From an uncultured Microbacteriaceae bacterium (GTDB lineage: Bacteria; Actinomycetota; Actinomycetes; Actinomycetales; Microbacteriaceae): DNA of 64,000 nucleotides. Shown here piece by piece: positions 27,900 to 51,067 of this stretch. The notes beneath the pieces were generated by a model. It searched no databases, was not told the origin of the DNA, and worked only from the letters and a program-made list of their open reading frames with translations. Position numbers and translations under genes: made by a program. The stretch lies in assembly GCA_903940225.1 (NCBI GenBank), contig CAJAKC010000032.1, positions 26,171 to 90,170 on the forward strand, given 5' to 3'. Positions within the stretch are counted from its first letter, which is position 1. Each line of letters opens with the position of its first letter.

Positions 27900-27911
27900 G
27901 TTGGGGATAAA
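27900..27911 (+). promoter_or_regulatory. pilus/envelope box copy 1 (GTTGGGGATAAA)
   Basis: Box ends 38 nt before ATG 27950. CACAAT hexamer at 27938-27943, 6 nt before the ATG. Confidence 0.5.
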
Positions 27912-27949
27912 CATCGACGTGTGGTGGCAGGAATCGACACAATCGCGAC

Positions 27950-28477
27950 ATGCGAATTTGTGCGATCGTGCTGCTAGGGGCACTTGCGGGGTGTGCGCCC
28001 GCTGACAAGACGCCGGCTCCCGCCCCGATCGTGACGGCGGAGGAGGCGGTTGCGCGCGAAGGCGTCGAACAGCTCGCTCTTGATGCTGTCGGCGATTACT
28101 TTGCGGTCTCGGCCGAGATCGCGGGGGACGGAGGCGAAGACCCGGACCGAATCGCGGAGGTCGTCACGTCGAATTGGTTGACACAGGAAATCACCGGTTT
28201 TGCGGCACTTCGTGCTTTGGGATCGAGACAAGCGGGGGTACCTGAGGTGACAAAGATTGAGGTGTCGGCGATTCGCGGAATTGCCGCCGTTACCGAAGTG
28301 GTGCTGCACGCGTGCACATCACTCGACGGGGTAACGATTCGAACCGCAGATGGCGACGAAACAGATGTGCCACTCGGAACCTCGCTGGTCACGATTTACG
28401 TCGTGCCGGAAGACGGCACTCTCAAAGTTGATGGCGTCGAACCGTGGACGGATGTGTCGTGGTGCGCAGAATCCTGA
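27950..28477 (+). CDS. lipoprotein of unknown function
   Basis: MRICAIVLLGALAGC lipobox (LAGC) followed by a soluble domain. Confidence 0.6.
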   Translation: MRICAIVLLGALAGCAPADKTPAPAPIVTAEEAVAREGVEQLALDAVGDYFAVSAEIAGDGGEDPDRIAEVVTSNWLTQEITGFAALRALGSRQAGVPEVTKIEVSAIRGIAAVTEVVLHACTSLDGVTIRTADGDETDVPLGTSLVTIYVVPEDGTLKVDGVEPWTDVSWCAES

Positions 28478-36219: not shown

Positions 36220-36299
36220 TGCGGGTGGAGGGACTCGAACCCACACGCCGAAGCACAGGATCCTAAATCCTGCGTGTCTACCAATTTCACCACACCCGC
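36220..36299 (-). tRNA. tRNA-Leu (anticodon TAG)
   Basis: Reverse complement GCGGGTG...CACCCGCA folds as a cloverleaf with anticodon loop TTTAGGA, an extended variable arm and T-arm GGGTTCGAGTCCC. CCA is not encoded. Confidence 0.85.
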
Positions 36300-36434: not shown

Positions 36435-37895
36435 ATGCGCGCGGAAGCAGAACTTTTGGCATCAGTCCCCACCAAGCTGTTTATCGGGGGTGATTGGGTC
36501 GACGCCGAAGGGGGCAAGACGCTCACGGTAAGCGACCCTGCCACGGGTGCGCATCTCTCGACCATCGCTAATGCGTCCGAAGCCGACGCGAAGAAGGCGA
36601 TGGACGCGGCTGCTGCGGTTCAGGAATCGTGGGGGAACACCGCACCGCGTGTTCGCGGGGAGATTCTTCGGAAGGCGTGGGAACTGCTCGTCGAACGACG
36701 TGACGACTTCGCGTTACTCATGACGATTGAGATGGGAAAGCCATTCGCCGAGGCACAGGGCGAGGTCACCTACGGCGGCGAGTTCCTTCGCTGGTTCTCT
36801 GAAGAAGCGGTTCGCATCAACGGCCGCTTTGGCTCGAACCCCGAGGGCACCGGCACGATGATCGTGTCGAAGCGCCCGGTCGGCCCCAGCTTCCTCATCA
36901 CTCCGTGGAACTTCCCTCTCGCGATGGCGACGCGCAAGATCGCTCCCGCAATCGCCGCAGGCTGCACGGCCATCATTAAGCCGGCGGAACTCACGCCTCT
37001 GACCACGCTGCTGTTCGCTGCACTCCTCGAGGAGGCCGGAGTGCCCAAGGGCGTCGTCCAAGTCATTACGACGAGCCGCTCGCGCGACGTGTCGCCGATC
37101 ATCATCCAAGACCCGCGGCTGCGCAAGTTGTCGTTCACGGGTTCAACGCAGGTGGGTAAAGTTCTGCTCAAGCAGGCCGCGGACAACGTTCTGCGCACGT
37201 CGATGGAACTCGGTGGAAACGCACCGTTTATCGTCTTCGACGACGCCGACATCGACAAAGCGGTTGATGGAGTCATGATTGCGAAGTTCCGCAACATCGG
37301 CCAGGCGTGCACCGCGGCGAATCGCATTTTCGTTCAGAAGGGCGCAGCGGCAGAGTTCACGAAAAAGGTCGCCGAGCGCGTTTCCGCGATGAAGGTCGGT
37401 CGCGGTACCGAAGAGGGTGTGACAATCGGGCCGCTCATTGACGAAAAGGCCGTCGAGTCGAGCCAAGCGTTCGTTGACGACGCCGTTGGTCTCGGCGCAA
37501 AGGTTCTGACCGGGGGCAAGCGCGTCGACGGCGCTGGGACCTTCTTCCAGCCCACGGTTCTTGCCAACGTGCACGCCGACACGCGTTTCATGGCGGAGGA
37601 AATCTTCGGACCCGTTTTGGGGGTCATCGAATTCGACACCGAGGACGAGGTCATTGCGATGGCCAATGACACCGAATACGGACTAATCTCCTACGCATTC
37701 ACGAACGATATGCACCGCGGGCAGCGACTCATCGAGAAGCTCGAGACGGGAATGATGGGTCTCAACACGGGCCTCGTCTCGAACGCCGCCGGTCCGTTCG
37801 GCGGGGTCAAGCAGTCCGGTGTCGGGCGCGAAGGCTCATCCGAAGGCATCGAGGAATACCTAACGACGAAGTACACCTTCATCCCGAAGGCGTAG
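36435..37895 (+). CDS. gabD: NAD(P)-dependent succinate-semialdehyde dehydrogenase (ALDH superfamily)
   Basis: 486 aa. ELGGNAPF (catalytic Glu) and NIGQACTAANR (catalytic Cys); overall GabD-like pattern. Confidence 0.8.
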   Translation: MRAEAELLASVPTKLFIGGDWVDAEGGKTLTVSDPATGAHLSTIANASEADAKKAMDAAAAVQESWGNTAPRVRGEILRKAWELLVERRDDFALLMTIEMGKPFAEAQGEVTYGGEFLRWFSEEAVRINGRFGSNPEGTGTMIVSKRPVGPSFLITPWNFPLAMATRKIAPAIAAGCTAIIKPAELTPLTTLLFAALLEEAGVPKGVVQVITTSRSRDVSPIIIQDPRLRKLSFTGSTQVGKVLLKQAADNVLRTSMELGGNAPFIVFDDADIDKAVDGVMIAKFRNIGQACTAANRIFVQKGAAAEFTKKVAERVSAMKVGRGTEEGVTIGPLIDEKAVESSQAFVDDAVGLGAKVLTGGKRVDGAGTFFQPTVLANVHADTRFMAEEIFGPVLGVIEFDTEDEVIAMANDTEYGLISYAFTNDMHRGQRLIEKLETGMMGLNTGLVSNAAGPFGGVKQSGVGREGSSEGIEEYLTTKYTFIPKA

Positions 37896-37904
37896 TTTGA
37901 CGCT

Positions 37905-37916
37905 GTTGTGGACAAA
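37905..37916 (+). promoter_or_regulatory. pilus/envelope box copy 4, degenerate (GTTGTGGACAAA)
   Basis: 10/12 match to copy 1. Ends 38 nt before tadA ATG 37955. CATGGT hexamer at 37943-37948. Confidence 0.4.
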
Positions 37917-37943
37917 ACCCGGGGTCACGCTCCGGGTTTTGTC
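37911..37943 (+). terminator. 12-bp stem-loop: gabD terminator and/or tadA leader structure
   Basis: GACAAAACCCGG (37911-37922) pairs with CCGGGTTTTGTC (37932-37943), 9-nt loop, no T-tract. Overlaps box copy 4, so its role is ambiguous. Confidence 0.45.
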
Positions 37944-37954
37944 ATGGTGGGGAC

Positions 37955-39046
37955 ATGTCCGACACCGACACCGAGAGCGTCGTTGAGCGCGTCAGGGGAG
38001 CGGTGGCTCGCGGCGCCACTGTTCGCGATGCGATCGTCACGGAGGTTCGGTCTGCACACGAACGATCACTCGGAATGGCCGCCGGTCTCGACATCGATGA
38101 ACGCGCCGTATCGGAACGAGTCGACGGTTTCGGAGCACTGCAGCCGCTGTTGGATGATCCCACCATCGAGGAAATCTGGGTAAACGACGATTCGGCTGTC
38201 TTCGTTGCGCGCGCGGGAGTTCATGAGCGGCTAGATCGGAACATCGGTCGTGACGAGGTTCGCTCGCTCGTCGAACGAATGCTGCGGCGCACGGGCCGCC
38301 GAATCGACTATTCCCAACCGTTTGTCGACGCGTCGCTTCCCGACGGCTCCCGATTGCACGTTGTCATTCCTCCCATCACGCGCGAATCGTGGTCGGTCAA
38401 CATTCGAAAGTTTTCGCGTTCGTTACGGTCGCTCGATGATCTTGTCTCGGCGGGGACGCTGACCCAGGGTTCCGCGACGGTTCTGACCGACGCGGTTCGC
38501 GCGGGACTGACCGTGCTCGTCGCGGGCGCGACCCAAGCGGGCAAGACGACCATGCTGACCGCCTTGTGCGGGGTGCTGCCTTCGGGCGAGCGAATTGTCA
38601 CGGTGGAAGAGACGTTCGAACTCGCCCTGCCCAACAGCGATGTCGTCGGCATGCAGTGCCGAGGGCCGAGCCTGGAAGGCCTGGGCGAAGTAACCCTGCG
38701 TCGCTTGGTAAGAGAGACACTGCGCATGCGTCCGACGCGCATCGTCGTCGGTGAAGTCCGCGGAGACGAAGCCCTCGATCTTCTCGTCGCGCTCAATTCA
38801 GGGATTCCGGGTTTGTGCACGATCCATGCGAACTCGGCGGGGGATGCCGTCCGAAAACTCGCAACCCTGTGCCAACTCGCGGGGGGAATCTCGGCGGAAT
38901 TCGTCACCGCGACCATCGCCGCCACCGTTGACCTAGTGGTTCACTGCCAAATGGGGTCGGACGGGGTGCGCCGGGTCACCGATATCGCTCGGCCCACGGT
39001 GGGACCAGTAGGGATCGAAATGGAGTCGGTGTGGTCCCCGTCGTAA
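37955..39046 (+). CDS. tadA: TadA/CpaF-family type IV pilus (Tad) secretion ATPase
   Basis: Walker A GATQAGKTT, Walker B-like RIVVGEVRG, His box CTIHANS; length is typical of the short actinobacterial form. Confidence 0.85.
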   Translation: MSDTDTESVVERVRGAVARGATVRDAIVTEVRSAHERSLGMAAGLDIDERAVSERVDGFGALQPLLDDPTIEEIWVNDDSAVFVARAGVHERLDRNIGRDEVRSLVERMLRRTGRRIDYSQPFVDASLPDGSRLHVVIPPITRESWSVNIRKFSRSLRSLDDLVSAGTLTQGSATVLTDAVRAGLTVLVAGATQAGKTTMLTALCGVLPSGERIVTVEETFELALPNSDVVGMQCRGPSLEGLGEVTLRRLVRETLRMRPTRIVVGEVRGDEALDLLVALNSGIPGLCTIHANSAGDAVRKLATLCQLAGGISAEFVTATIAATVDLVVHCQMGSDGVRRVTDIARPTVGPVGIEMESVWSPS

Positions 39047-39870
39047 TCTCTCTCATTGCCGTGACGGGATTCTGTGTCCTGTTCACACGGTCCGTCCCGC
39101 GAATCAGCAAACCCCTTCGCGCGTGGCTCGATGAGTGCGGACTGGTCGGAACGTCGACGGGAGCCCTTGCGGTCGTGCTCGCGGTCCTGGCTCTGCTCGT
39201 GGCGGGACTGACGTCACTGTTCGTCCCCATCCCCGTCCTCGCCCCCATTGCGGCGATAGCGGGGCTGGCAATCCCGATTGCCACTCTGGATGCGGCGCGC
39301 ACTCGGCGTCGAGTTCTCGCGGAGGCGCGGTGGCCCGACATTCTTGACGCCATGCGGATGTCCATTCGAGCGGGTGCGCCACTACACGAATCGTTAGCAG
39401 CCGCGGCGGGGCAGATACCGCGCGAGTGGGCGACGTCGTGGAATCACGCCGTCACCGATCTGGCGCGCGGCGCAGCCGTCGAAAGCGCCATGCTCGGGCT
39501 AAGGGCCGATCGCGCCGACCCGATCGCAGACCGAGTGTGCGAATCAATCGTCATTGCCCACGAAATGGGGGGCACGGAACTGCCGCGAATTCTCGAGGAG
39601 TTGGCGCGGGCTGTTCGCGACGATCTGCGCGTACGGAGGGAAGCCACGGCGCGCCAATCCTGGGTGAGACACGCCGCGCGTCTCGGCTCGTGTGCACCGT
39701 GGGTTGTCGTCGTGATGCTGGGCAGTCGCGCCGAGAATCGTGAAGCATTCGCGAGCGCGGCGGGTGCAGCCCTCCTCGTCGCCTGCGCCGGAGCAACCGT
39801 GGTTGCCTACATCGTGATGACCGCGATGGGGCGACTGCCCGACCCACCGCGCTGGGTAGTCGATGATTGA
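39031..39870 (+). CDS. tadB: TadB-like type II secretion system F-family membrane protein
   Basis: Polytopic membrane protein directly after tadA with an overlapping start; T2SSF-like cytoplasmic domain. Confidence 0.65.
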   Translation: MVPVVISLIAVTGFCVLFTRSVPRISKPLRAWLDECGLVGTSTGALAVVLAVLALLVAGLTSLFVPIPVLAPIAAIAGLAIPIATLDAARTRRRVLAEARWPDILDAMRMSIRAGAPLHESLAAAAGQIPREWATSWNHAVTDLARGAAVESAMLGLRADRADPIADRVCESIVIAHEMGGTELPRILEELARAVRDDLRVRREATARQSWVRHAARLGSCAPWVVVVMLGSRAENREAFASAAGAALLVACAGATVVAYIVMTAMGRLPDPPRWVVDD

Positions 39871-40540
39871 GGCGGCACTCGGCGCAATGCTGGGACTTGG
39901 CATCTGGATACTTATCGATGGTTCACCGAAACTACGCCTCGCTGCTCGAATCGCACCGTATCTGCGCGACCTCTCACGGGCCGCTCGTCGGACATCCAGT
40001 GCTCGTGATCTGGTCGACGTGATTGTGGCACTGATTCCGCACCCTGTTCGATTCATCACCGACCTGTGGCGAAATCGCGCATCCGTGCGCCGTCGACTCA
40101 TCGACTCGGAACTGCCCGCCTTTCTTGACCGCGCGTCGGTGTGTCTGTCCGCAGGCCTCTCCATCCCCTCGACATTCGATCGTGTCGGTATCGATTCCGT
40201 CGGGATTCTTGGTCACGAGGCTCGCACGATTGCCCGCGAGCTCGGGGTGGGGGTCACGCTCGTCGACACGTGCACCGCGAGCGAACGCCGAGTTCGACAC
40301 GAATCCTGGTCGCGATTTATTGAGCACGTTCTCAGTGCGCGGCGCCACGGAACTCCGATCGCCGACATCGTCCGGTCGCTCGCGGCGGACGAACGCGCTG
40401 CAGCCGGGCGCCGATTGCTCGAGGCCGCGAGCTCGCGCGAAATCTACATGCTCATCCCACTCGTGTTTGTCATTCTGCCGATGACTGTACTTGTCGCCGT
40501 GTTCCCCGGCCTTGTCGCTCTCGCCTCACTTCCCGTGTAG
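39863..40540 (+). CDS. tadC: TadC-like type II secretion system F-family membrane protein
   Basis: ATGATTGA overlap with tadB; N- and C-terminal TM segments flank a soluble domain. Confidence 0.65.
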   Translation: MIEAALGAMLGLGIWILIDGSPKLRLAARIAPYLRDLSRAARRTSSARDLVDVIVALIPHPVRFITDLWRNRASVRRRLIDSELPAFLDRASVCLSAGLSIPSTFDRVGIDSVGILGHEARTIARELGVGVTLVDTCTASERRVRHESWSRFIEHVLSARRHGTPIADIVRSLAADERAAAGRRLLEAASSREIYMLIPLVFVILPMTVLVAVFPGLVALASLPV

Positions 40541-40565
40541 CGAGCGCTTCTGCCAGACTGGTCAC

Positions 40566-40973
40566 ATGACCAGTGCAAAGTCTCTCCTCATCGCCTCGCT
40601 GACACAGTTCGTCGCGGTCCTGTTCAGCCTCGGGGGTTGGATTGACCCCGTTCTGGGCGGAACATCCATCGTCGCGGCGCTCATTGTCAGTCTTGGTGCG
40701 ATGTTTATCGGTCGCGTTCGGATTCCCAAGTTGAACTGGATTTCCGTTACGGCAGCGGTAGTGCTCGCAGTGGGGGCGGTTGCCTCTTTGTTGGCGGCGT
40801 ACGACCCGAACGCAGGCGACGAGCAGTTGACCACCATCGCGTCAAGTCCTGCTGTGGTCGCGTTCAACATGGCATTCCGCGTAGCATCCGTTTCCGTCAT
40901 CGCGGGTGAAGTCTTCTATCTGGTCCTCATCGCCACCGCGTATCGGGCGGTCAAGTTGGCTGGGGATAAATAG
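40566..40973 (+). CDS. four-TM membrane protein of unknown function inside the Tad operon
   Basis: Internal ATG 40566 (MTSAKSLLIASL...) chosen. Four hydrophobic helices; no recognisable family. Confidence 0.45.
   Translation: MTSAKSLLIASLTQFVAVLFSLGGWIDPVLGGTSIVAALIVSLGAMFIGRVRIPKLNWISVTAAVVLAVGAVASLLAAYDPNAGDEQLTTIASSPAVVAFNMAFRVASVSVIAGEVFYLVLIATAYRAVKLAGDK
40959..40970 (+). promoter_or_regulatory. pilus/envelope box copy 2 (GCTGGGGATAAA)
   Basis: Overlaps the last codons of the 4-TM ORF. Ends 38 nt before ATG 41009. CACAGT hexamer at 40997-41002. Confidence 0.5.
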
Positions 40974-41008
40974 GGACACGTTCCCCTGCCGCACGGCACA
41001 GTGGCGGG

Positions 41009-41167
41009 ATGACACATTTCCCACACAACCCTGAGCGCGGCGATGTTCCCGGTTGGGTTCTCATCACCCTCATGACCGCCGGACTGGTCGTTGTCATTTG
41101 GGCCGTTGCCGGTCCCGCACTGAGTGGCGTTTTCGAATCCGCCATCAATCGGGTGGTCACGATGTGA
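41009..41167 (+). CDS. Flp-family / DUF4244-like small pilin (52 aa), not in the supplied ORF track
   Basis: Hand translation: MTHFPHNPERGDVPGWVLITLMTAGLVVVIWAVAGPALSGVFESAINRVVTM. Short polar leader, one hydrophobic helix. Sits between tadC and tadE; its ATGTGA end overlaps the GTG start of the next gene. Confidence 0.55.
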   Translation: MTHFPHNPERGDVPGWVLITLMTAGLVVVIWAVAGPALSGVFESAINRVVTM

Positions 41168-41544
41168 CTGCTCATCGTCAGCGCGGCAGCGCGGCGGTCG
41201 AGTTCGTCGGCGTTGGAGCGGTTGTCACGGCCTGTGCGCTGGGAATCCTGCAGGTCGGTGTCGTCTCCCACATCTCCGCGGTGTTGACCGATTCGGCGAT
41301 CGCCGGTGCCGCCTTTGGCGCTCTCGCCGATTCCTCGATGGCGGCGGGAATTGAGCGCACGCGCGAACTTGCGTCAGCGGGGATTGCTTCACGCTTCGTC
41401 GATGACGTCAGCGCGACCCAGACCACGGTGAGCGGTAAGCCGGTCATCACCGTCACCGTTCGATTTCGAGCACCGACCGTCGGCCCCTGGTTTCCGGCAA
41501 TTGTCTCGTCCGTGAGGGGTCGCGCCTTTGTGGAACTCCCCTGA
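41164..41544 (+). CDS. TadE-like pseudopilin
   Basis: In-frame GTG 41164 gives VTAHRQRGSAAVEFVGVGAVV..., the TadE N-terminal signature (RGSAAVEF plus a hydrophobic helix). Confidence 0.7.
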   Translation: MTAHRQRGSAAVEFVGVGAVVTACALGILQVGVVSHISAVLTDSAIAGAAFGALADSSMAAGIERTRELASAGIASRFVDDVSATQTTVSGKPVITVTVRFRAPTVGPWFPAIVSSVRGRAFVELP

Positions 41545-41592: not shown

Positions 41593-43071
41593 CTACTTAC
41601 CAGCGCGCATCTTGCTTGCGACGGCGATGGCATCCGAGTACGGAGCCTTCGAGCGCAAGTGAGGACGTGCGATGAGCAGGTACAGGCCACCGGGGACCAG
41701 CACTGCCACCACCCCGATGAGCGAGATGTTGTCGATGAACCAGTCACCGCTTGCTCCGGGCTGGAGCAACCACGAGATTGCCCAGATTCCGTATGCGAGT
41801 GCCGCGATGTTGATGATGAGGCCGAACGAACCCAGTGACCAGGGTCCGGCAGGCTTCCATCCACGGAATCGCTGAATGAGCGACGCGAGGACGACCGACT
41901 GGAACGCGATGTAGATTCCGAGCACAGCGAATGCTGTGATGGGGACCAGTGACGCAGGGTTGACGTAGATGATCACGGCGAGCAACATGGGGACGACGCT
42001 CGCCACGATGAGTGCGTTCGTCGGAACCTTGCTGCGGTCCGAGATTTTGCTGAGCCATCCGCTGGCGGGCAGCATCTTGTCACGCGCAAACGAGTGCAGC
42101 AAGCGGCTTGCGGCTGCCTGCAGGCTCAAAACGCACGAGAGGAAGGCCACGACGGCGACGACGAGGAACAGACGAGCACCGGTCTCTCCCAGAACATCCG
42201 CGAGGATCGTTCCGATTGGGTCGGCGTTCTCTCCAGCCGCGGTAGCGGCGAGGAGTTCCGGCGAGGCGGCGAGAACATATCCCGAGAACGAGGCGAGTGC
42301 CGAGACGGCACCGACGATGATTGTCAGGTACATGGCCTTCGGTACTTCGCGAGCAGCGTCGCCAACTTCTTCGGCGACGTCACCACAGGCTTCGAAGCCG
42401 TAGAACATGAAAAGGCCGACGAGGGCCGCTCCCATGAACGCGGTGCCGTAATCAGCTGACGCGAAGCTATCGGTGAAGATGGTGAACTCGTTTTGGCGTT
42501 CGAAGATGAGCAGGTAAAGACCCAGTCCGACGACACCGACGAGTTCCGCACCGAGACCGATGGTCGCGATACGTCCGAGGGTTTTGGTTCCACCGAGGTT
42601 GATGACCAGTGCGACTGCGAGCAACGCAACCACCATAATCAGCGTGATTTCGGGGGTGAGTTCCGTCACGCCAAGAACCGTTGCAAGGAATCCGGTTGCG
42701 TATTCGGCAACCGAAGCGATCGTGACGAGCATCGCCCAGACGTACACCCATGCGGTGAGCCAGGCGCTCTGGCGACCGGCAAGGCGACGCATCCACGGGT
42801 AGATTCCACCAGCGATGGGGAACTGCGAGACGACCTCGCCCATTACCAGTGCGACGAGCATCTGGCCAGCGGCGACGATGAGAATCCAGAAGATGGATCC
42901 AGGTCCGCCGGTCATGAGCCCAAGACCGAACAGCGCGTAAATCGCGACGAGCGGCGACAGGTACGTGAACCCGAGTGCCAGAGTGCCCCATACGTTCATG
43001 GAGCGGTTGTAGTTGCTTTCGTATCCCAGCGCACTGAGTTGCGCGGAATCCGATTGTCCATTTTTAGACAT
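41593..43071 (-). CDS. APC-superfamily amino acid/amine permease
   Basis: 492 aa, about 12 TM helices, N-terminal polar segment then WGTLALGFTYLSP; general APC look. Confidence 0.8.
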   Translation of the reverse strand: MSKNGQSDSAQLSALGYESNYNRSMNVWGTLALGFTYLSPLVAIYALFGLGLMTGGPGSIFWILIVAAGQMLVALVMGEVVSQFPIAGGIYPWMRRLAGRQSAWLTAWVYVWAMLVTIASVAEYATGFLATVLGVTELTPEITLIMVVALLAVALVINLGGTKTLGRIATIGLGAELVGVVGLGLYLLIFERQNEFTIFTDSFASADYGTAFMGAALVGLFMFYGFEACGDVAEEVGDAAREVPKAMYLTIIVGAVSALASFSGYVLAASPELLAATAAGENADPIGTILADVLGETGARLFLVVAVVAFLSCVLSLQAAASRLLHSFARDKMLPASGWLSKISDRSKVPTNALIVASVVPMLLAVIIYVNPASLVPITAFAVLGIYIAFQSVVLASLIQRFRGWKPAGPWSLGSFGLIINIAALAYGIWAISWLLQPGASGDWFIDNISLIGVVAVLVPGGLYLLIARPHLRSKAPYSDAIAVASKMRAGK

Positions 43072-43244
43072 GGTGACCTTTCATTACGGTGATGAGGTCA
43101 GTCCGCGGGTTGCCCGTTGGAGTGCACCTCGTTGTGCAAGTGAAACGATAGTGCGTTTATTCGTTCAGTGGTAGATGATTCAGTTCGCAATTCCATTTGG
43201 CGTGTCGTTCGCACTTCCGATAGAGGAAAATAAAACCTTTGGTA

Positions 43245-43273
43245 TTGCATGATTTATAAAGTCGGCGTAGAAT
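43245..43273 (+). promoter_or_regulatory. sigma-70-like promoter TTGCAT-17 nt-TAGAAT upstream of the P450 operon
   Basis: Hexamers at 43245-43250 and 43268-43273, with a 17-nt spacer counted by hand, in an unusually AT-rich 257-nt divergent intergenic region. Confidence 0.45.
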
Positions 43274-43328
43274 CCTGACAACGCGACACCACCGGGCAAG
43301 CGCCCCTGAACAACGAGGTTCTGCACAT

Positions 43329-44522
43329 ATGTCTACTGACGTTGCGGTTCCCTATCTTGACATCTCGGATCCATCCTTCGCGATGCACTCCGAAGCCGTT
43401 CGAGCAGCGCGTGCCCAGCACTGGTTCGCGCGCACAAACTACGGTGTCGCGATCCTCCGCCACGAATACGTGTCGAAACTCCTCAAGGACCCGCGACTGC
43501 GCCAAGGCAGTGGCAAATGGCCCGACCACAACGGAGTCCACTCGGGACTCTTCTACGACTGGTGGACCCAGTGCCTCCTCGTGCTGGAGGGAGACGACCA
43601 CCACCGCATTCGCCGCCTACTCAATCCCGCATTCGCCCCCAAGCACCTCGAACCATTTCTGCCGCGCTTCGAGGCGCTCGCACGGGAACTCGTCAACGAC
43701 TTCATCGACAAGGGAGAACTCGAGTTCGTCAACGATTTCGCTGAGCCCTATGCGACCCGAGTTCTCTGCATCCTCCTCGGGATTCCCGAAAGCGAATGGC
43801 CCACCATCGCACGCCTGGCATCGACGATCGGGCTCGCGCTCGGTGTCACGCTCAAGCAAGACCTCGGTGTCGTTGAGGATGCCTTGGAAGAGCTTTACGG
43901 ATATGCCGAAAACCTCATCGCCGACCGTCAGGCAAACCGCGGTGATGATCTCGTCACAACGCTCGTTCAGGCAAACGCCAACGGAGACTCGCTCAGTGAT
44001 TCCGAATTGCGCAACGCCCTGTGCCTGCTGATATTCGGTGGCATGGACACGACACGAAACCAACTCGGACTCGGAATCATGTCCTACCTGCACAACCCCG
44101 ACCAGTGGGAGCTGCTCGCGAAGCACCCCGAGCTTGCGCGAAACGCCGTCGAAGAGATCATGCGCACCAACCCCACCACGACGTGGGTGACCCGCGAAGC
44201 GATGGTGGACTTCGATTACGAAGATTTGCGCGTCACCGCGGGGACGACGGTCCACTTCTTCACACAAGTGAGTGGCACCGACCCGGAAGCGTATCCGAAC
44301 CCCGAGATCGACATCACCGCCGAACGCGTTCCGCACTATGGATTTGGTGGCGGAATGCACCACTGCCTGGGCCACTTCGTTGCCCGCGCTGACATGGCAA
44401 TCGCGCTGACGGCGCTGTCCGAGCGAATGACGAACCTCCGGATAAGCGGCAAGGACGAATGGCTGCCGGACTCGGGGAACACCGGACCGGTCAGGCTTCC
44501 CATCGGCTTCGACAAACGCTAG
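43329..44522 (+). CDS. cytochrome P450 monooxygenase
   Basis: I-helix LIFGGMDTTRN, EEIMR (ExxR), heme loop FGGGMHHCLGHFVAR. Confidence 0.9.
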   Translation: MSTDVAVPYLDISDPSFAMHSEAVRAARAQHWFARTNYGVAILRHEYVSKLLKDPRLRQGSGKWPDHNGVHSGLFYDWWTQCLLVLEGDDHHRIRRLLNPAFAPKHLEPFLPRFEALARELVNDFIDKGELEFVNDFAEPYATRVLCILLGIPESEWPTIARLASTIGLALGVTLKQDLGVVEDALEELYGYAENLIADRQANRGDDLVTTLVQANANGDSLSDSELRNALCLLIFGGMDTTRNQLGLGIMSYLHNPDQWELLAKHPELARNAVEEIMRTNPTTTWVTREAMVDFDYEDLRVTAGTTVHFFTQVSGTDPEAYPNPEIDITAERVPHYGFGGGMHHCLGHFVARADMAIALTALSERMTNLRISGKDEWLPDSGNTGPVRLPIGFDKR

Positions 44523-44542
44523 ATTCCAACAAGGAGAAAACA

Positions 44543-44731
44543 ATGCAGATAAATGTCGATCGCACGAAGTGCGACAACCACGGGCAATGCACGTTCTCGG
44601 CGCCGACCGTTTTCCGCCTCGACGAGCAGGGAATCCTCCAACACGAAACCACCGCCGATGAGTCGCTTCGCCACGATGTCGAGGAAGCGGCGGATGTTTG
44701 TCCCGCTCAAGCGATAACCGTCACCGACTGA
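44543..44731 (+). CDS. small [3Fe-4S]-type ferredoxin (P450 redox partner)
   Basis: 62 aa from internal ATG 44543, preceded by AAGGAG. CDNHGQC...CP cluster motif (CxxHxxC...CP). Confidence 0.8.
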   Translation: MQINVDRTKCDNHGQCTFSAPTVFRLDEQGILQHETTADESLRHDVEEAADVCPAQAITVTD

Positions 44732-44769
44732 CGCCCCAACAACCCGATTAGGACGAAGGAGTCCACAAC

Positions 44770-46176
44770 ATGGCAAACAACATCGTGGTGAGTGCCCTCA
44801 CCGATAACGACGCCTTCCACAAGCATCAGGCCGCAAACATGCGGCCAGAGGTCGTCAAGGACCTCGAACAGAAGATTTCCGCGGCGGGTGTCGAGTTCAT
44901 CTATTACATGCTTCCCACCATCGGTTCGAAGGTTGTCGCCAAGATGGTTCCCGCCCACCACATCAAGCGCAACCTCGAAAAGGGCATCGCGCTGCACCGC
45001 ACCGCAGTCGCCGACCTGCAGTCCGACCGCGCCGGGAACCTGATCGGCGGAGGAATCGGCGCTCGCGAAATGATCGCACTCCCCGACCCAGAAACGTTCG
45101 TCGTTTTGCCCTGGGACACGTCGATTGCGCGGATGCTGTGTCGCGCCTACGAACCGACGCACTTCGCCGGTGTTGGTGGCCGACCGTTGCAGACCGACTC
45201 GCGCGGACTGTTGATGCGCGCGCACCAGGAATTCACGGAACGCACCGGTTATGAGGTGCGAAGCGGCACGGAGCCCGAAATGATGTGGGCCGGACCGGGA
45301 CTCGAGGTCATCAAGAAGGATGGCGCAAGTCCCGCCTACCAGGTTGAGAACCTCGAGCGGGCTCGTGAAATCTTCAAAAAGGTCATCCGCTACGCCACCG
45401 CGTTCGGCCTTGACATGGTCGAGGGCGACTATGAGGACGACGGGCAGTTGGAACTCAACTGGATGTTCGATCGAGTCGAGCTGACATCCGACCGGTTGGT
45501 CACGTATCGCCAAGTGTGCAAGCAGGTTGCCCGTGAATTGGGAATCACGGCGTCGTTTATGCCGAAGCCGTTCAACGGGCTGATGGGTAACGGTTGCCAC
45601 CACAACCTGTCGCTCTGGAAAGACGGCGTCAACGCGTGCATCGAACCGGGAAACACCGAGATTCACTTGTCCGAGGTTGGTCGCTGGGCGGTCGGTGGAA
45701 TGTTGACTCACGCTGCTGAATCGACCGCAATCATGGCGTCCACCGTGAACTCGTACAAACGATTCTGGGATGCCGGGCAGTTTGCACCGAGCTCACCGTC
45801 CTGGGGACTGGATTCACGCGAAGGGATGATTCGCATCTCGTCCATCGGGCGAATCGAGTACCGCCAACCCGATTCCAGTGTGAACCCCTACCTTTCCCAC
45901 ACGGCACTGCTGGCGTCGATCGAGGACGGACTCGCCCGCAAGATTGATGCGGGAGACCCACTCACGCAGGACGGAGCGAAGATCGCAAAGTTCGACGTCA
46001 TGCCGATGACGCTGGGTGATGCAATCGTCACGTTCGAGTCCAGCTCGATGCTGTCCACCGCTCTGCCCGAAGAAATGCGCAAGGTGTTCATCGACCTCAA
46101 ACGGGATGAATGGGCGCGTTATTGTGGTGTCATTACCGAATGGGAATTCAGCCAATACTGGGAGACGGTGCCGTGA
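44770..46176 (+). CDS. glutamine synthetase-family ligase, predicted gamma-glutamyl-amine synthetase
   Basis: 468 aa with GS beta-grasp and catalytic-domain patterns (EPEMMW, GNGCHHNLSLW, SWGLDSREGMIRI, RQPDSSVNPYL). Operonic with P450 and the gamma-glutamyl hydrolase. Confidence 0.8.
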   Translation: MANNIVVSALTDNDAFHKHQAANMRPEVVKDLEQKISAAGVEFIYYMLPTIGSKVVAKMVPAHHIKRNLEKGIALHRTAVADLQSDRAGNLIGGGIGAREMIALPDPETFVVLPWDTSIARMLCRAYEPTHFAGVGGRPLQTDSRGLLMRAHQEFTERTGYEVRSGTEPEMMWAGPGLEVIKKDGASPAYQVENLERAREIFKKVIRYATAFGLDMVEGDYEDDGQLELNWMFDRVELTSDRLVTYRQVCKQVARELGITASFMPKPFNGLMGNGCHHNLSLWKDGVNACIEPGNTEIHLSEVGRWAVGGMLTHAAESTAIMASTVNSYKRFWDAGQFAPSSPSWGLDSREGMIRISSIGRIEYRQPDSSVNPYLSHTALLASIEDGLARKIDAGDPLTQDGAKIAKFDVMPMTLGDAIVTFESSSMLSTALPEEMRKVFIDLKRDEWARYCGVITEWEFSQYWETVP

Positions 46177-46868
46177 TGAAAAAGTTGCGTTTGGCCTGTA
46201 TCGATTCGGCGGCACTGCCGCTGTTCGACGTAAGTCCTGATGGGGTCACTCGTGCGGGATACGAACCTGAGCTCGCCGGACTCGTTGCCGATGTGCTCGG
46301 ACTCGAGCTGGAATGGGTGTTCACCGCGTGGGACAACATGATTCCCATGGTTCGTGCGGGCGAGGCGGACGCGGTCTGGTGTGGTCAGGGGATGATCCCC
46401 GAACGCGCCGCGCTCGTCGACTTCACGCAGCCGTATGCGATCTTCAACGAGACGGTTGTCGTCCGCGCGGGCGACCCGGCCAGGGGCCCGGATTCCATGG
46501 CGGGCTACCGCGTCGGTGCCATCGCCAACAGTGCGAACCTCAAGGTTGCGCAGACCATTGTGGGTGCCGAGATTGTCGAGTTCGGCGCGACCGCCGATGT
46601 TTTCGCCGACATGATTGCGGCCCTTCGCAGCGGCGAAGTCGACGCGTTCGTGGATGATGATGTCGTGATGATTCCGCTCGGCGAAGACCCCGACTTTGAC
46701 GTCGCCTTCACCGCGGAAACGCGCAACCCCTGGGGGATTGGCGTGAAACCAGGAAACGCCGAACTTCTTGCTGACCTCAACCGCGCCCTTGACACTCTTC
46801 GCGCCGACGGTCGATTCAAGGCCGTCTGGGATAAATGGATGCCCACATTGGACTTCCCGCTGGGATAA
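46176..46868 (+). CDS. family-3 solute-binding-protein fold protein lacking a signal peptide
   Basis: ATG 46176 (MKKLRLACIDSAALPLFDV...). GYEPELAGLVADVLGLELEWVFTAWDNMIPMVRAGEADAVWCGQGMIPERAALVDFTQPY is the classical SBP_bac_3 pattern. No hydrophobic leader or lipobox. GTGATG and TAATG overlaps with the neighbouring genes. Confidence 0.65.
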   Translation: MKKLRLACIDSAALPLFDVSPDGVTRAGYEPELAGLVADVLGLELEWVFTAWDNMIPMVRAGEADAVWCGQGMIPERAALVDFTQPYAIFNETVVVRAGDPARGPDSMAGYRVGAIANSANLKVAQTIVGAEIVEFGATADVFADMIAALRSGEVDAFVDDDVVMIPLGEDPDFDVAFTAETRNPWGIGVKPGNAELLADLNRALDTLRADGRFKAVWDKWMPTLDFPLG

Positions 46869-47665
46869 TGGTGGGCATGGCCCATAACATCACTCCAGCC
46901 GACGTTTTGCCGGCGACGAATGACTCGATGCCGGCAGAAGCCCCAACCGTTGCCGTAGTCGTTTCGCTGAACATCCCCGAAATGACCGATGAGGTTGCGG
47001 GGCTTGTTGTGCGATTCACACGCGTAGCTCTCAAGGAAATCAACGACGTGGGCGCGCGAATTGTTCTGATGGATTCCAGTCGTGACGACCTGTCTGACGC
47101 CGACATCGCCGATCGGTGCGACGGAGTGTTGTTCCTGGGCGGCGGAGACGTCGACGCAACAATCTATGGTCACACCGAACCGGTGAATCATGAGTACGGA
47201 GTCTCGCGCGAAGCCGATGATTACTGCATCGACATCATCAAGTCTACGATCGACCGTGACGCACCGATGCTCTGCATTTGTCGCGGCTCGCAACTGCTCA
47301 ACGTTGCCCTCGGTGGGGATCTCATCCCCGATATCGAGGAGTACGCCCTGCACCGCGGCGGCGCCGGCGACCCCATGTTCAAGGACGAAAACGTGACGCT
47401 CGAACCGGGAAGCAAGATTCGCGAGATTTTGGGGCGTGACACCGTCGCCGTTCGATCAGGCCACCATCAGGCTGTTCGGCGCGTTGCCGAGGGGCTGGTC
47501 GTGTCGGCTCGTGCCGATGACGGGGTCGTCGAAGGCACCGAACTTCCCAGTGCTCGTTGGGTTGTCGGAGTGCAGTGGCACCCGGAAGACGACGACGGCT
47601 CGGCGAGCGATCGACGCAAGCTCTTTCAGTCCTTCGTCGACGAAGTGAAGCTGGCGCGCGTCTAA
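46868..47665 (+). CDS. gamma-glutamyl-gamma-aminobutyrate hydrolase family (PuuD-like, peptidase C26, class I amidotransferase fold)
   Basis: ICRGSQLLNVALGG (nucleophile Cys) and VQWHPE (His/Glu). Start set at ATG 46868, overlapping the upstream TAA. Confidence 0.8.
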   Translation: MVGMAHNITPADVLPATNDSMPAEAPTVAVVVSLNIPEMTDEVAGLVVRFTRVALKEINDVGARIVLMDSSRDDLSDADIADRCDGVLFLGGGDVDATIYGHTEPVNHEYGVSREADDYCIDIIKSTIDRDAPMLCICRGSQLLNVALGGDLIPDIEEYALHRGGAGDPMFKDENVTLEPGSKIREILGRDTVAVRSGHHQAVRRVAEGLVVSARADDGVVEGTELPSARWVVGVQWHPEDDDGSASDRRKLFQSFVDEVKLARV

Positions 47666-48363
47666 AACGTTTCGCGCGGAACGGTGACGAGCCGCAACCC
47701 GAGTTCGTGGACCGGCAGGTCAATCGCGTGAGCCGTTGCCGGTAGTTCGCCGACACGATTTCCCACGAGGAATTTGCCGGAGTTTCCGAGGAGGATTCGA
47801 CCAGTGTTTGTCACGAGAGCGGCATCGGCGTCAATGCGGCGAAGCAGCGCCATCAGTGCAGATTCCAGCGAGCGAATTTCGATGTCGCAGCCGGCCGCGC
47901 CGATGATATTTCCGTCGAGCCGAAAGGGGACCGTAACCGTGATGATGTACTTGTCCATTCCCAGATAGTCGACGTAGGGTCCGGTGAGTGTTGGGCGTCC
48001 CGTGTCGACGACGTTTCGAAACCACTCAAGACTCTCGAAATCGTAGAAGCCAGCGGTTTGCGGGTTGAGCGTCACCAGCAAACGACTTGTGGTGTTGCCG
48101 GTCGCGCGAACCCACCACTCGACAGCACCCTCGACTCCGACGATTCCCGGTTGAATCACGACGCCGGCACCTTCGCACACGCGGTGCTTGCCGAGGAAAG
48201 CCTCAGCGGCGGGTTTCACCGCGAGAAAATCCTGTGTGGCGAGAGGAGGACGACCACCCGCGCCCTGAAGTGTCCGCTCGACACCCCGTGCGAGTTCATC
48301 GAGGTCGGAGTAGACGTCAGTGAACCAGGCGGTTAGTCCCTCGACAATTTCTGTTGTGATCAC
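47662..48363 (-). CDS. soluble Cache/PDC-fold ligand-binding domain protein with no output domain
   Basis: 233 aa, no TM segment. TLTGPYVDYLGMDKYIITVTVPF and IGAAGCDIEI resemble Cache-domain core strands. GTGA overlap with the upstream GntR gene. Confidence 0.55.
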   Translation of the reverse strand: MITTEIVEGLTAWFTDVYSDLDELARGVERTLQGAGGRPPLATQDFLAVKPAAEAFLGKHRVCEGAGVVIQPGIVGVEGAVEWWVRATGNTTSRLLVTLNPQTAGFYDFESLEWFRNVVDTGRPTLTGPYVDYLGMDKYIITVTVPFRLDGNIIGAAGCDIEIRSLESALMALLRRIDADAALVTNTGRILLGNSGKFLVGNRVGELPATAHAIDLPVHELGLRLVTVPRETF

Positions 48364-49163
48364 CTCGCACCACCCGTCGGGTACATCGAGTTGAGCCGGT
48401 GTTCAACGATGCGGTAGGTGTTTCGTGTGATGTGCTCGCGCACTCCACTCTGTGCGGCGGTGACATCGCCCTTGCGCAGTGCCGCAACGATCGCGCGATG
48501 GTCGGCCGCCGCCCATGCGCGGTCGGCGGTGGGATCGAGGACCGACCACAGAATCTCGGCGGATTCGCTCAGCAAGCGCATTTCGGTCTGGACGAGTCGC
48601 TCGGATTGGGCAAGGACCGCGAGCTCGATGTGGAATCGCGAATCGGCCCACACACACGCCTCGGTGGAATCGGCAGCCCCAACCAGCCCGGCGATCGCCT
48701 CGAGCCGATCAAAATCGTGGTCGGACGCGCGTTCGACCGCCAGCCGCACTGCCGCCATCCCGTTCGATGCTTGTTCGTCCGACATATCGCGCAATTCCGC
48801 CATCGACAGGTTGACGAGTCTCGTGAGGAGCTGGTCTGCGTTCGGCACCGGGGTGCCGACGATGAACGTGCCGCCACTTCGTCCACGACGGGTTTCGATA
48901 ATCCCCTGGTCGCGAAGCGTTTGGAGTGCGTCACGGACGGTTGCAGTCGCGACTCCGAACATGGCGGTGAGTTTGTTTTCGGCCGGGAGTTTTTCACCGT
49001 GTCGAAGCAGCCCAAGAATTATGGCGGTCGTGAGTCGGTCGACGATGGCGTCTGCTCGGAGAACGTCGGGAAGTGGTCTGAAGACCTGCGACTGCACCCC
49101 GGAGAGCTGACCCACTGTGAACCTGACCTGTCTTCGGACGATTCGACGAATCGTTGTTGTCAC
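48360..49163 (-). CDS. GntR-family transcriptional regulator with FCD (FadR C-terminal) domain
   Basis: wHTH LPAENKLTAMFGVATATVRDALQTLRDQGIIETRRGRSGGTFIV followed by an all-helical FCD-like domain. Confidence 0.85.
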   Translation of the reverse strand: MTTTIRRIVRRQVRFTVGQLSGVQSQVFRPLPDVLRADAIVDRLTTAIILGLLRHGEKLPAENKLTAMFGVATATVRDALQTLRDQGIIETRRGRSGGTFIVGTPVPNADQLLTRLVNLSMAELRDMSDEQASNGMAAVRLAVERASDHDFDRLEAIAGLVGAADSTEACVWADSRFHIELAVLAQSERLVQTEMRLLSESAEILWSVLDPTADRAWAAADHRAIVAALRKGDVTAAQSGVREHITRNTYRIVEHRLNSMYPTGGAR

Positions 49164-49224
49164 GCTACTAAATAATCCCGCATCCGTAAATCATTCAGAC
49201 CCGAACGAGTAGCAGAATAGAGAT

Positions 49225-50592
49225 ATGCCTTATGCAACAACCAACCCCGCCACCGGAGTCGTCGAGCGCGAGTTTCCGAGTGCAACGTCCGCAGACGTTG
49301 CCGCCGCAATTTCTCGCGCTCACAGCGCTCACGTGGAATGGCGTGAGTGGAGCGTCACGGACCGCGCCAAGGTGCTCGCCACCGTTGCCGCGCTGTACGA
49401 CGAGCGCAAAGAGGAGCTCGCCGACATCATTGCGCGCGAAATGGGTAAGCCCGTCCGCCAGGGTCGCGGCGAAGCGTGGTTCGCCGGTGAGATTTACAAG
49501 TTTTATGCCGAGCACGGCCCAGCGCACCTCGTTGACGAAGACCTCCACCCGATGTCGGGAGGACAGGCCATTGTTCGCTCGGCACCACTCGGAGTTCTTC
49601 TCGGAATCATGCCCTGGAATTATCCGTACTACCAGGTCGCTCGATTCGCCGGCCCGAACCTTTTGCTGGGAAACACCATCCTCCTCAAGCACGCGAGCAA
49701 CTGCCCCGAGTCTGCCCTGGCGCAAGAGAAACTCTTCCGTGACGCCGGATTACCTGACGGCGCGTACATCAATCTGTTTGTGGACTCGAAAGACATCGAA
49801 GCGGTCATCGCTGATCCGCGCGTTCACGGCGTTTCACTGACGGGTTCGGAAAAAGCGGGAGCCGCCGTTGCGGCAGCCGCCGGACGTTCGCTCACCAAGG
49901 TCGTGCTGGAACTCGGCGGCAGTGATCCGTTCATTGTTCTTGACGACAGCAACCTCGACGAGACCGTTGCGGCGGCGGCATCGGGTCGCATGAGCAATGC
50001 GGGTCAGGCGTGCACAGCGGCCAAAAGATTCATCATTCTCGATTCTGTGTACGACCGGTTCATTGAGGCGTTCGCGGCGAAGCTAAAGACCTACGTTGCC
50101 GGCGACCCGCTCGACCCCGGGACGAACTTCGGTCCACTGTCGTCCTATTCCGCTGTCGTCGAATTGTTGGAACAGGTCGAAGACGCCGTGAGCAAAGGCG
50201 CGACACTCGTCACGGGCGGTCACCGAATCGGCGAGGTCGGCGCTTTCATGGAACCGACGCTCCTCGCAAACGTCACGCCCGACATGAGGGCATTCCACGA
50301 AGAATTGTTTGGACCCGTCGCCGTTGTCTATCGCGTCACGGACAAGGATGAGGCGATTGCCCTGGCGAACGCCTCGGAGTTTGGACTGTCGGCAGCGGTG
50401 TTTGGTTCCGACGCGAACGACACTCGGTACGTGGCCGACCGACTCGACTGCGGAATGGTCTACATCAACGAAAACACGGACTCGCACGTCGATCTGCCGT
50501 TCGGGGGAGTCAAGAAGTCGGGCTTCGGGCGCGAACTCGGCAAGTTCGGGTTTGACGAGTTCGTCAACAAAAAGCTCATCCGCACCTCGTAG
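49225..50592 (+). CDS. NAD(P)-dependent aldehyde dehydrogenase (455-aa GabD-like clade)
   Basis: VLELGGSDPF (Glu), NAGQACTAAKRF (Cys), EELFGPV. Confidence 0.85.
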   Translation: MPYATTNPATGVVEREFPSATSADVAAAISRAHSAHVEWREWSVTDRAKVLATVAALYDERKEELADIIAREMGKPVRQGRGEAWFAGEIYKFYAEHGPAHLVDEDLHPMSGGQAIVRSAPLGVLLGIMPWNYPYYQVARFAGPNLLLGNTILLKHASNCPESALAQEKLFRDAGLPDGAYINLFVDSKDIEAVIADPRVHGVSLTGSEKAGAAVAAAAGRSLTKVVLELGGSDPFIVLDDSNLDETVAAAASGRMSNAGQACTAAKRFIILDSVYDRFIEAFAAKLKTYVAGDPLDPGTNFGPLSSYSAVVELLEQVEDAVSKGATLVTGGHRIGEVGAFMEPTLLANVTPDMRAFHEELFGPVAVVYRVTDKDEAIALANASEFGLSAAVFGSDANDTRYVADRLDCGMVYINENTDSHVDLPFGGVKKSGFGRELGKFGFDEFVNKKLIRTS

Positions 50593-50603
50593 CTGGGGAT
50601 AAA
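50592..50603 (+). promoter_or_regulatory. pilus/envelope box copy 3 (GCTGGGGATAAA)
   Basis: Starts at the last base of the ALDH stop codon. Ends 38 nt before GTG 50642. GACGAT hexamer at 50630-50635. Confidence 0.5.
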
Positions 50604-50641
50604 GCGCACGAGCGTCGGAGCGGCCAACCGACGATGGTGGC

Positions 50642-51067
50642 GTGCAGCCGTCAGAACGTGGATCCGCAAGCCTCGAGTTTGTGGTCGTCGCGCTCGGAGT
50701 ACTGATTCCGATACTCGCGGTAACGGTGTCGACAACCGCAATTCAGCACGCGCAATTCGCTACCACCGAGATTTCCCGGCAAGGCGTGCGCGCTCTCGCG
50801 CTCGCCGCAAACACGACCGCGGGCAACCGTGCGATTCGTCGCATCGCCCGGCTCACACTCGCCGATTTCGGCATAACCCAATCCGCGCGATTCACGATTG
50901 CGTGCACTCCGCAGCCCTGTGGCGGTTACGGGTCGCTCTATCGGTTGACCACGACCGTCACGGTTCCCCTCGCGATGATTCCCGCGCTTCCCGGTCTCGA
51001 CGTGCTCACGCGAATCCCGGTTTCGGCGACCGCCACCCACCGAGCACCGCTGCCGGTGACGCCGTGA
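50642..51067 (+). CDS. TadE-like pseudopilin
   Basis: N-terminus (M)QPSERGSASLEFVVVALGVLIPIL is the TadE signature. Confidence 0.65.
   Translation: MQPSERGSASLEFVVVALGVLIPILAVTVSTTAIQHAQFATTEISRQGVRALALAANTTAGNRAIRRIARLTLADFGITQSARFTIACTPQPCGGYGSLYRLTTTVTVPLAMIPALPGLDVLTRIPVSATATHRAPLPVTP

Follow-up and report, generated by a model that had tools for sequence, protein, structure and literature searches.

A DnaA-box-like element at a fixed promoter position before Tad pilus and other actinobacterial genes

Results

The stretch of DNA analysed here (the window), 64 kb of contig CAJAKC010000032.1 from an uncultured Microbacteriaceae bacterium, contains a Tad pilus gene cluster and four copies of a short box that stand at one distance from four start codons. 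A search of both strands with the box pattern GYTGKGGAYAAA gave exactly four matches, all on the + strand, at 27900, 37905, 40959 and 50592. Box S1 (27900..27911, GTTGGGGATAAA, with its core TGGGGATAA at 27902-27910) precedes a gene for a 175-aa lipoprotein with signal peptide plus Cys (27950..28477, +), for which no Pfam or NCBIfam family match was found. Box S2 (37905..37916, GTTGTGGACAAA, core TGTGGACAA) precedes the pilus ATPase gene tadA/cpaF (37955..39046, +; PF00437, T2SSE, 7e-41), which has a putative leaderless start, and box S3 (40959..40970, GCTGGGGATAAA) would belong to an internal promoter for a Flp-like pilin gene (41009-41167, +, 52 aa). Box S4 (50592..50603, again GCTGGGGATAAA) lies directly 3' of the TAG stop codon of an aldehyde dehydrogenase gene and upstream of a TadE-like gene (50642-51067, +), this gene and the pilin gene being assigned by orthology only. 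At all four sites the spacer between box and start codon is 38 nt (ATG 27950, ATG 37955, ATG 41009 and GTG 50642), and each spacer holds a −10-like hexamer ending 6 nt 5' of the start codon: CACAAT for S1 (27938..27943, +), CATGGT for tadA (37943..37948, +), CACAGT for flp (40997..41002, +) and GACGAT for S4 (50630..50635, +). All four start codons are the first possible in their open reading frame (ORF) after the in-frame stop (27950..28477, 37955..39046, 41009..41167 and 50642..51067). The boxes had been quoted in a first-pass annotation of this DNA, together with the invariant spacing and the hexamers, and re-reading all four places showed both the sequences and the geometry to be correct.

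Shuffling gave 0.01 occurrences of the pattern expected by chance, a statistic that is circular because the pattern was derived from the same four sites; the independent evidence is therefore taken from other genomes. With two mismatches allowed, the pattern has 28 sites in the window against 18.7 expected, so there is no halo of degenerate copies. A fifth copy of the 9-mer core TGKGGAYAA, at 62869, looks like chance, since it lies within the coding region of a 2-oxoglutarate-dehydrogenase-like gene and has no downstream −10 geometry.

The comparison set consisted of 80 loci around tadA homologues, one per species, in which the 260 nt upstream of 59 tadA genes and of 1008 other genes were scored for the 9-mer core. 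An exact forward core was found upstream of 35/59 tadA genes and 4/1008 other genes, and a core with up to one mismatch upstream of 48/59 and 44/1008, respectively; of the 11 tadA genes without a forward box, nine carry one in reverse orientation. The tadA box is present in nearly all Microbacteriaceae, Cryobacterium, Pontimonas, Rhodoluna, Marisediminicola, Glaciihabitans, Leifsonia, Agromyces and Microbacterium among them. Each site of the window has counterparts: the S1 box is kept before orthologous lipoprotein genes in three loci (L009, L011, L013), the S2 box upstream of tadA in most loci, and the S3 box before flp in at least ten loci (among L001-L005, L007-L010, L012 and L021); Pontimonas and acMicro-4 (L023, L053, L054) have it in the degenerate forms TGTGCATAA, TGTGAATAA and TGTGAGTAA, while orthologous S4 boxes (CTGGGGATAG, CTGTGGACAA and CTGTGGACGG) stand before the TadE-like gene in L081-L086. 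Conservation at orthologues thus supports the earlier proposal of a cis-regulatory element common to Tad genes, the box being enriched before tadA rather than randomly placed or lacking at orthologous tad promoters.

The position profile of 86 sites begins with C at −1, the 9-mer and weak C/A and T preferences, is then blank up to cANNNT 27 nt downstream, and ends in four G-rich positions and ATG. The core anatomy is accordingly C-TGKGGAYAA-C, 27 (±1) nt, a −10-like cANNNT, 6 G-rich nt and ATG or GTG, with the box at −49 to −39. A hexamer NANNNT follows 26-28 nt after 72/87 exact cores, compared with 70/449 (16%) cores with one mismatch, and in 46 tadA and flp promoters aligned on −10 and start codon only the box reappears, unsearched, at −49..−39. 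No conserved promoter-like signal was seen upstream of the box in either the profile or the alignment, only a weak GC-rich signal occupies the −35..−30 region of the latter, and no E. coli/sigma-70-type −35/−10 pair was found in 37700-41300. The first base of the −10-like hexamer is mostly C, not T. The (T)ANNNT-like −10 ending 6-7 nt before a first-start ATG or GTG, without a Shine-Dalgarno sequence, is that of actinobacterial leaderless sigma-A promoters, and the fixed distance and orientation of the box relative to the −10, without a −35 consensus, are those of an activator site next to the −35 position.

The box is tied to the −10 and not to the start codon, because the 27-nt distance is kept where a leader intervenes: in Rhodoluna (L016/L026/L032) box, 27 nt and CAAGCT are followed by a leader of ~20 nt with GGAGG, and in Knoellia (L074) box, 27 nt and TAGTAT by one of 50 nt. 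Knoellia and its relatives also carry boxes back to back (TTGTGCACAG abutting CTGTGGATGA), each serving one of two divergent genes, whose −10 is 27-28 nt away, with tadA on one side and an FHA-FtsK/SpoIIIE ATPase gene on the other. Such back-to-back or tandem boxes, between tadA and a divergent giant FHA-FtsK/SpoIIIE gene (1400-1950 aa), were seen at 9800-9870 of L074, at 9690-9760 of L078 and in L046. The Kocuria tadA promoters (L028, L029, L048, L068) have a reverse box, TT(G/T)TCCACAG, 39-40 nt upstream of a conserved TAGATT −10. On its other strand the Kocuria box precedes a conserved non-coding stretch, containing ACATGTGGGCTGT, ~300 nt before a gene for a 170-190-aa protein; judged by its sequence the stretch could be a small RNA or a small ORF.

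As read from sequence and comparison, the anatomy is that of a mostly leaderless sigma-A-type promoter class with a box at −49 to −39, in which the A or G of the start codon would be the first transcribed nucleotide. This agrees with the leaderless-promoter geometry suggested earlier for this DNA, in which the −10-like hexamer ends 6 nt before the start and the box was placed at about −48 to −37. At the RNA level the four leaders share no fold; three of the four fold no better than shuffles and only that of S2 folds strongly, where it coincides with a terminator. Rfam gave no match to the leaders, its only hits in the window being tmRNA and two tRNAs.

Metagenome contigs were scanned with the pattern CTGKGGATAA-N28-A-N3-T-N6-ATG, which matched at least 120 loci. 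About half of the matches listed are low-GC noise with ORFs shorter than 30 aa, and in 53 of the 120 an ORF of at least 80 aa starts at the ATG. C at +10, which the pattern leaves unspecified, is present in 45/53 of the ORF-bearing matches listed compared with 11/48 of the noise class. The downstream families recur: DUF559 or REase-like proteins of ~300 aa (at least 11 hits), the S1-type lipoprotein family (at least 4-5 contigs among the matches listed), a 200-aa 'MRWDRLFDDLEGQ' family (at least 4), SAF/CpaB, ThiF-like proteins and tadA (at least 3 each), ArfB, DUF222, FHA-FtsK and large Gly-rich secreted proteins (at least 2 each), prepilin peptidase (at least 1) and small Cys-rich proteins on contigs of ~48% GC (at least 4). 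Four of the last type, 41-46 aa long (CxxC…CxxC) and encoded behind the full box architecture at a GC content of ~0.48, fall into one family in L199 and L203 and another in L219 and L247; their sequences suggest that the box regulon extends to low-GC freshwater Actinobacteria. Because families recur in this way, the element is, on sequence grounds, a general actinobacterial promoter box of scattered Tad components and DNA-handling proteins. It is not a Tad-only element, and the first-pass view that it defines a Tad pilus regulon has to be given up, as the same architecture stands before many other actinobacterial gene families. The predicted regulon would comprise, on the Tad side, the tadA operon, the pilin, minor pilins, SAF/CpaB-CpaE and prepilin peptidase and, beyond it, the FHA-FtsK/SpoIIIE ATPase, the lipoprotein family, nuclease-like proteins (DUF559, DUF222), ArfB and ThiF-like proteins.

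Read in reverse complement, the core of the related-site consensus, TGTGGATAA, gives the DnaA box TTATCCACA, and the 11-mer consensus CTGTGGATAAC is identical to the E. coli oriC boxes R1 and R4, flanks included. The boxes conform to the DnaA-box sequence definition TTWTNCACA / TT(G/C)TCCACA. In reverse complement the S2 core reads TTGTCCACA and fits TT(G/C)TCCACA, whereas S1, S3 and S4 read TTATCCCCA in DnaA-box orientation, with one mismatch of W-box type. TTGTCCACA has been called the 'perfect' actinomycete DnaA box, and TCCCCA, contained in the complement of TGGGGATAA, is the weak W-box of Caulobacter (PMC4285127). Among the metagenome contigs one of 1.3 kb (L167) carries 27 DnaA boxes in 720 bp, many in inverted pairs (AACTTATCCACAATTGTGGATAAGTT), upstream of a DnaG-like gene; by its sequence it looks like the origin or a DnaA-titration locus of an unrelated organism of ~41% GC. 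Viral contigs (L087-L163) encode many stand-alone phage proteins of 100-250 aa consisting essentially of a DnaA domain IV-like helix-turn-helix (HTH; …GGRDHTTVMHA…), and recognition of DNA of the DnaA-box type is therefore not confined to DnaA.

Next to the box-bearing SAF gene and divergent from it lies a small gene for an HTH_17 protein (PF12728, 'excisionase family'). In six loci fetched through this protein (Microbacterium resistens and others, 60 kb in total) the gene order is secA, aminotransferase, (CpaE-like, SAF), HTH_17, ('MRWDRLF'), DUF6459, PdtaS, WhiB, and all 12 exact boxes flank the HTH_17 gene: every locus has one between HTH_17 and SAF and another upstream of the 'MRWDRLF' gene. 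At leaderless SAF starts the box between the two genes lies 27-28 nt from the SAF −10. In at least five of the nine loci read, this box also stands in reverse orientation 37 nt from the −10 (GAGAAT/GATAAT) of the HTH_17 gene, itself leaderless, a geometry similar to the 39-40 nt of the Kocuria tadA promoters. The HTH_17 gene thus adjoins boxes, one of them shared between its own promoter and the divergent SAF promoter, as expected of operators of its product. The 'MRWDRLFDDLEGQ' family (~200 aa; L284-L289), which has no Pfam family, is always encoded tail to tail with the HTH_17 gene, always behind its own box and divergent from the DUF6459 gene. In seven other loci PdtaS-WhiB lies ~5 kb upstream of FHA-FtsK/tadA, so these genes form one neighbourhood in some lineages.

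A structural model of the HTH_17 protein (predicted local distance difference test, pLDDT, 81) has a winged helix matching mycobacteriophage Xis (root-mean-square deviation, rmsd, 0.9 Å) and BldC (rmsd 1.3-1.5 Å), to which it adds a long C-terminal helix and a tail, ASFPEVWG, that does not vary. The units bound by BldC are asymmetric and 9 bp long; in its optimised site stands TTGTCCGAA (PMC5859096), which matches the box at 7/9 positions. The HTH_17 locus is the counterpart of Mlut_14630-14670 of Micrococcus luteus. In that organism point mutations in the HTH_17 gene Mlut_14660 raise comEA/EC promoter activity, one of them (C1607261T, S46F) being common to ten mutants; Mlut_14660 could not be deleted, and the neighbouring SAF gene is required for transformation (PMC8467076).

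The tad genes of the window run from tadA through tadB (39031-39870, +) and tadC (39863-40540, +), both encoding T2SSF membrane proteins, a gene for a 160-aa membrane protein (40491..40973, +) whose last four codons are box S3, and the pilin gene to a first TadE-like gene (41164-41544, +; PF07811). About 9 kb of unrelated genes (41593..50592: amino-acid permease, P450, glutamine synthetase-like, GntR, aldehyde dehydrogenase) then split the cluster, and S4 heads the separated part, which consists of the second TadE-like gene and a Tad/TadG-like gene (~51064-51477, +; PF13400 on the orthologue) and is followed 3' by prfB, ftsE, ftsX, smpB and the tmRNA gene (55051-55424). The cluster has the components of a Tad system, namely a TadA/CpaF ATPase, TadB, TadC, a Flp pilin and TadE-like minor pilins (Pfam T2SSE, T2SSF twice, TadE). 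No TadZ/CpaE, CpaB/RcpC or prepilin peptidase was found in the window; in relatives these lie at separate box-bearing loci. The TadA homologues assign the window to freshwater Microbacteriaceae, and in most Microbacteriaceae relatives the tad genes are contiguous and then followed by prfB-ftsEX-smpB, in contrast to the split cluster seen here.

Aldehyde dehydrogenase genes precede both S2 and S4. The one upstream of tadA ends in a terminator hairpin with a T-tract (37911..37943, +; −28.7 kcal/mol, z = −3.98, 15-bp stem), which sits within the tadA promoter between box S2 and the −10, its 5' arm overlapping the last bases of the box and its T-tract reaching into the −10; the hairpin is kept in L001-L005. 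Two loci, L085 and L086, have an identical TadE-like protein and different inserts, L086 retaining only a 3' dehydrogenase remnant before the box. From the comparison of the window with L081, L083, L085 and L086, and with the split cluster and a second aldehyde dehydrogenase gene before tadA in the window, the spaces between box promoters look like hot spots of insertion and deletion. The window has tRNA genes at 19048-19121 and at 36220-36299 (−), the latter flanked by a DedA-like gene and by the aldehyde dehydrogenase gene that precedes tadA; several relatives have a tRNA gene directly upstream of the tadA box.

Discussion

The box is almost certainly a protein-binding promoter element. A protein bound there would adjoin the usual contact place of sigma region 4 at the −35 and could thereby control recruitment of RNA polymerase. 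That the similarity of the four sites arose by chance, or as a by-product of the 3' ends or terminators of upstream genes, might be read from the TAG stop codons that adjoin S1, S3 and S4 and from the overlap of S2 with a terminator stem, but it is refuted by the comparative data: the box tracks the downstream gene while the upstream neighbour varies (aldehyde dehydrogenase, tRNA, DedA, FHA-FtsK and others), and with the enrichment before tadA and the spacing statistics this leaves such an origin with practically no probability. The first-pass annotation had also offered an alternative in which transcription starts at or before the box, so that the box forms the 5' end of a 50-nt leader RNA of fixed length and the ribosome-binding sites are the G-rich hexamers. 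Such hexamers do precede the starts (positions −6 to −3), but the G-run is 0-3 nt from the start codon, too near for a Shine-Dalgarno sequence, the NANNNT hexamer at −12..−7 is conserved, nothing promoter-like is conserved upstream of the box, and the leaders of Rhodoluna and Knoellia, with a true GGAGG, are placed downstream of the unit of box, 27 nt and −10. With neither an Rfam family nor a shared fold among the leaders, that alternative is very improbable.

Several more specific identities were considered and rejected. A sigma-28/WhiG-type −35 (TAAA-N15-GCCGATAA) lacks a conserved downstream partner; for the −35 of an extracytoplasmic function (ECF) or other sigma factor the 26-27-nt gap to the −10 is too long, and for an extended −10 the T at −7 is missing. 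A DosR half-site or a CRP/GlxR or Rex half-palindrome near −41 has no conserved second half, the PafBC RecA-NDp element differs in sequence and has 8-nt spacing, MraZ TGGGN repeats would recur with a 10-nt period that is absent, a GntR/FadR-type palindrome fits S2 only, and an RNA element or riboswitch finds no Rfam match and no shared fold. Neither the GntR gene (48360-49163, −) nor the ECF sigma gene (61647-62372) of the window shows a link to the box.

As to the protein that binds, we tentatively favour a small Xis/BldC-like winged-helix HTH_17 protein (~90 aa) of the Mlut_14660 type, encoded between the SAF/CpaB-CpaE operon and the 'MRWDRLF' gene, with the box as its operator; the support for it falls short of even odds. 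The grounds are that the site is single, oriented and phase-locked, that weak variants are conserved at the pilin promoter, that the gene is sandwiched by two boxes, one of them shared with its own promoter, and the M. luteus genetics. The strict phasing and the missing −35 suggest activation as the sign of control. Several points weigh against this assignment. BldC-type proteins use tandem head-to-tail repeats, and here there is one unit, with no repeat in the 27-nt spacer; the HTH_17 gene is not in the 64-kb window; the compared sequences contain no ComEA gene that would link the comEA promoter with the box; and, SAF-CpaE being Tad genes, some co-localisation of HTH_17 gene and boxes is to be expected in any case. 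In the M. luteus study the Mlut_14660 genetics are interpreted as repression (PMC8467076), although the one substitution that recurs, in a gene that is essential, could confer a gain of function. DnaA itself, moreover, must be able to bind these sites, judging from a consensus identical, flanks included, to the strongest DnaA boxes.

DnaA might indeed be the regulator, the box being a genuine DnaA box at which DnaA, probably DnaA-ATP, at −49..−39 recruits RNA polymerase where a promoter has no −35; the Tad/DNA-uptake and nuclease genes would then be expressed according to replication status, with a strong box (TGTGGAYAA) at tadA and weak TCCCCA-type boxes at the pilin, lipoprotein and TadE-like genes. 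We hold this to be possible but on balance unlikely. Besides the identity of the consensus, the tolerated variants fall at the loose positions of the DnaA box (3, 5 and 7, the last as TCCCCA), the oriC-like cluster of 27 boxes in L167 has the same 3' flank, (G/C)TT, the factor is needed across Actinobacteria of ~42% to 74% GC and DnaA is universal, and in M. luteus the mutations of strains with reduced com expression lie in gyrA and in an FtsK-like gene. To our knowledge, however, the known DnaA-regulated promoters are not built with a single box whose orientation and distance to the −10 are strictly set. In vivo, E. coli DnaA is found almost exclusively on boxes paired at 2-3 bp, and of 32 perfect single boxes only 13 were bound (PMC11317965), a pair rule that the promoter boxes do not follow: no second box lies beside 64 of them (mean match 2.9, control positions 3.1). 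The weak TCCCCA variant, moreover, makes up three of the four sites in the window and is conserved nonetheless, one of them at the presumably high-output pilin promoter, and the C at −1, conserved in 78% of sites, is unpreferred in the L167 cluster. Less probable again is another widely conserved actinobacterial factor, such as a DnaA-domain-IV-like HTH protein or a monomer of AraC/LuxR type, or a joint reading such as competition between HTH_17 and DnaA. No transcription-factor gene is conserved within the Microbacteriaceae tad neighbourhood, phage contigs, at least, encode stand-alone DnaA-domain-IV-like proteins of 100-250 aa, and the motif, one asymmetric unit, is of the kind that monomeric activators read; a candidate gene was not found, though, and HTH_17 and DnaA already explain the data. 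Anything beyond HTH_17, DnaA and another or joint factor is highly improbable.

The element shares features with several known systems and coincides with none. Like DnaA boxes it has the 9-mer, the flanks of E. coli R1/R4, the loose positions and a weak TCCCCA form known from oriC; unlike them it is single, oriented and 27 bp from a −10, neither clustered nor paired at 2-3 bp and not at oriC or dnaA, and whereas DnaA-regulated genes are replication and nucleotide genes, the box regulon consists of pili and nuclease-like genes. With BldC and phage Xis the HTH_17 candidate shares its fold, and the BldC unit is likewise an asymmetric 9 bp with a GC part and an A/T-rich part read in the minor groove, its site having TTGTCC in common with the box; BldC differs in binding head-to-tail on 2-4 tandem repeats of loose consensus, where the box is one highly specific unit, and the long C-terminal helix and ASFPEVWG tail set the candidate apart from both BldC and Xis. 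Activator sites next to the −35 position (class II sites such as CRP at −41.5, PhoB, the WhiB7 AT-hook sites, the PafBC '−26 element' of mycobacterial sigma adaptation) also combine fixed distance and orientation to the −10 with a lack of −35, but none of them has the sequence and spacing of the box: a distance of 8 nt separates the PafBC element from the −10, sites of CRP/GlxR type are palindromes, and that of WhiB7 is no more than A/T-rich. In competence boxes (cin-box/ComX, CRP-S/Sxy, ComK) one short box marks scattered pilus and DNA-processing genes, as here; phylum, box and geometry differ.

The first-pass annotation had called the cis-element undescribed. The sequence itself is not, being that of the DnaA box; its fixed promoter position apparently is, since literature searches by sequence and topic returned no description of the element, of an actinobacterial promoter class of DnaA-box type or of a binding site for the Mlut_14660 family. 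A transcription-factor site that defines a regulon is a known kind of thing; within the literature searched, this member of the kind is new, as are the geometry it shows and the match of its sequence to the DnaA box. The box regulon is probably a DNA-uptake (competence) regulon of Actinobacteria, a role we infer only because tad pili mediate transformation in M. luteus. The M. luteus competence screen likewise turned up an FtsK-like gene.

Regulation of the Tad pilus and of natural transformation in Actinobacteria is essentially unknown, according to M. luteus papers of 2021 and 2026, and the sharply defined 11-bp element offers a probe, a regulon prediction (Tad parts, the FHA-FtsK ATPase, nuclease-like genes and the lipoprotein family) and two candidate binders. 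Binding by HTH_17 would explain the dominance of its gene in the M. luteus competence mutant screen and would make the protein a second, highly specific member of the BldC-like regulator class. It is also conceivable, if doubtful, that an operator identical to the DnaA box marks the Tad/DNA-uptake and nuclease-like genes throughout Actinobacteria in such a way that DnaA activates them, or that HTH_17 competes with DnaA, and competence is tied to the replication state. Either arrangement would represent an undescribed promoter class, with a single box at −44 and no −35, and an involvement of DnaA would make the element a link between the control of replication and the uptake of DNA.

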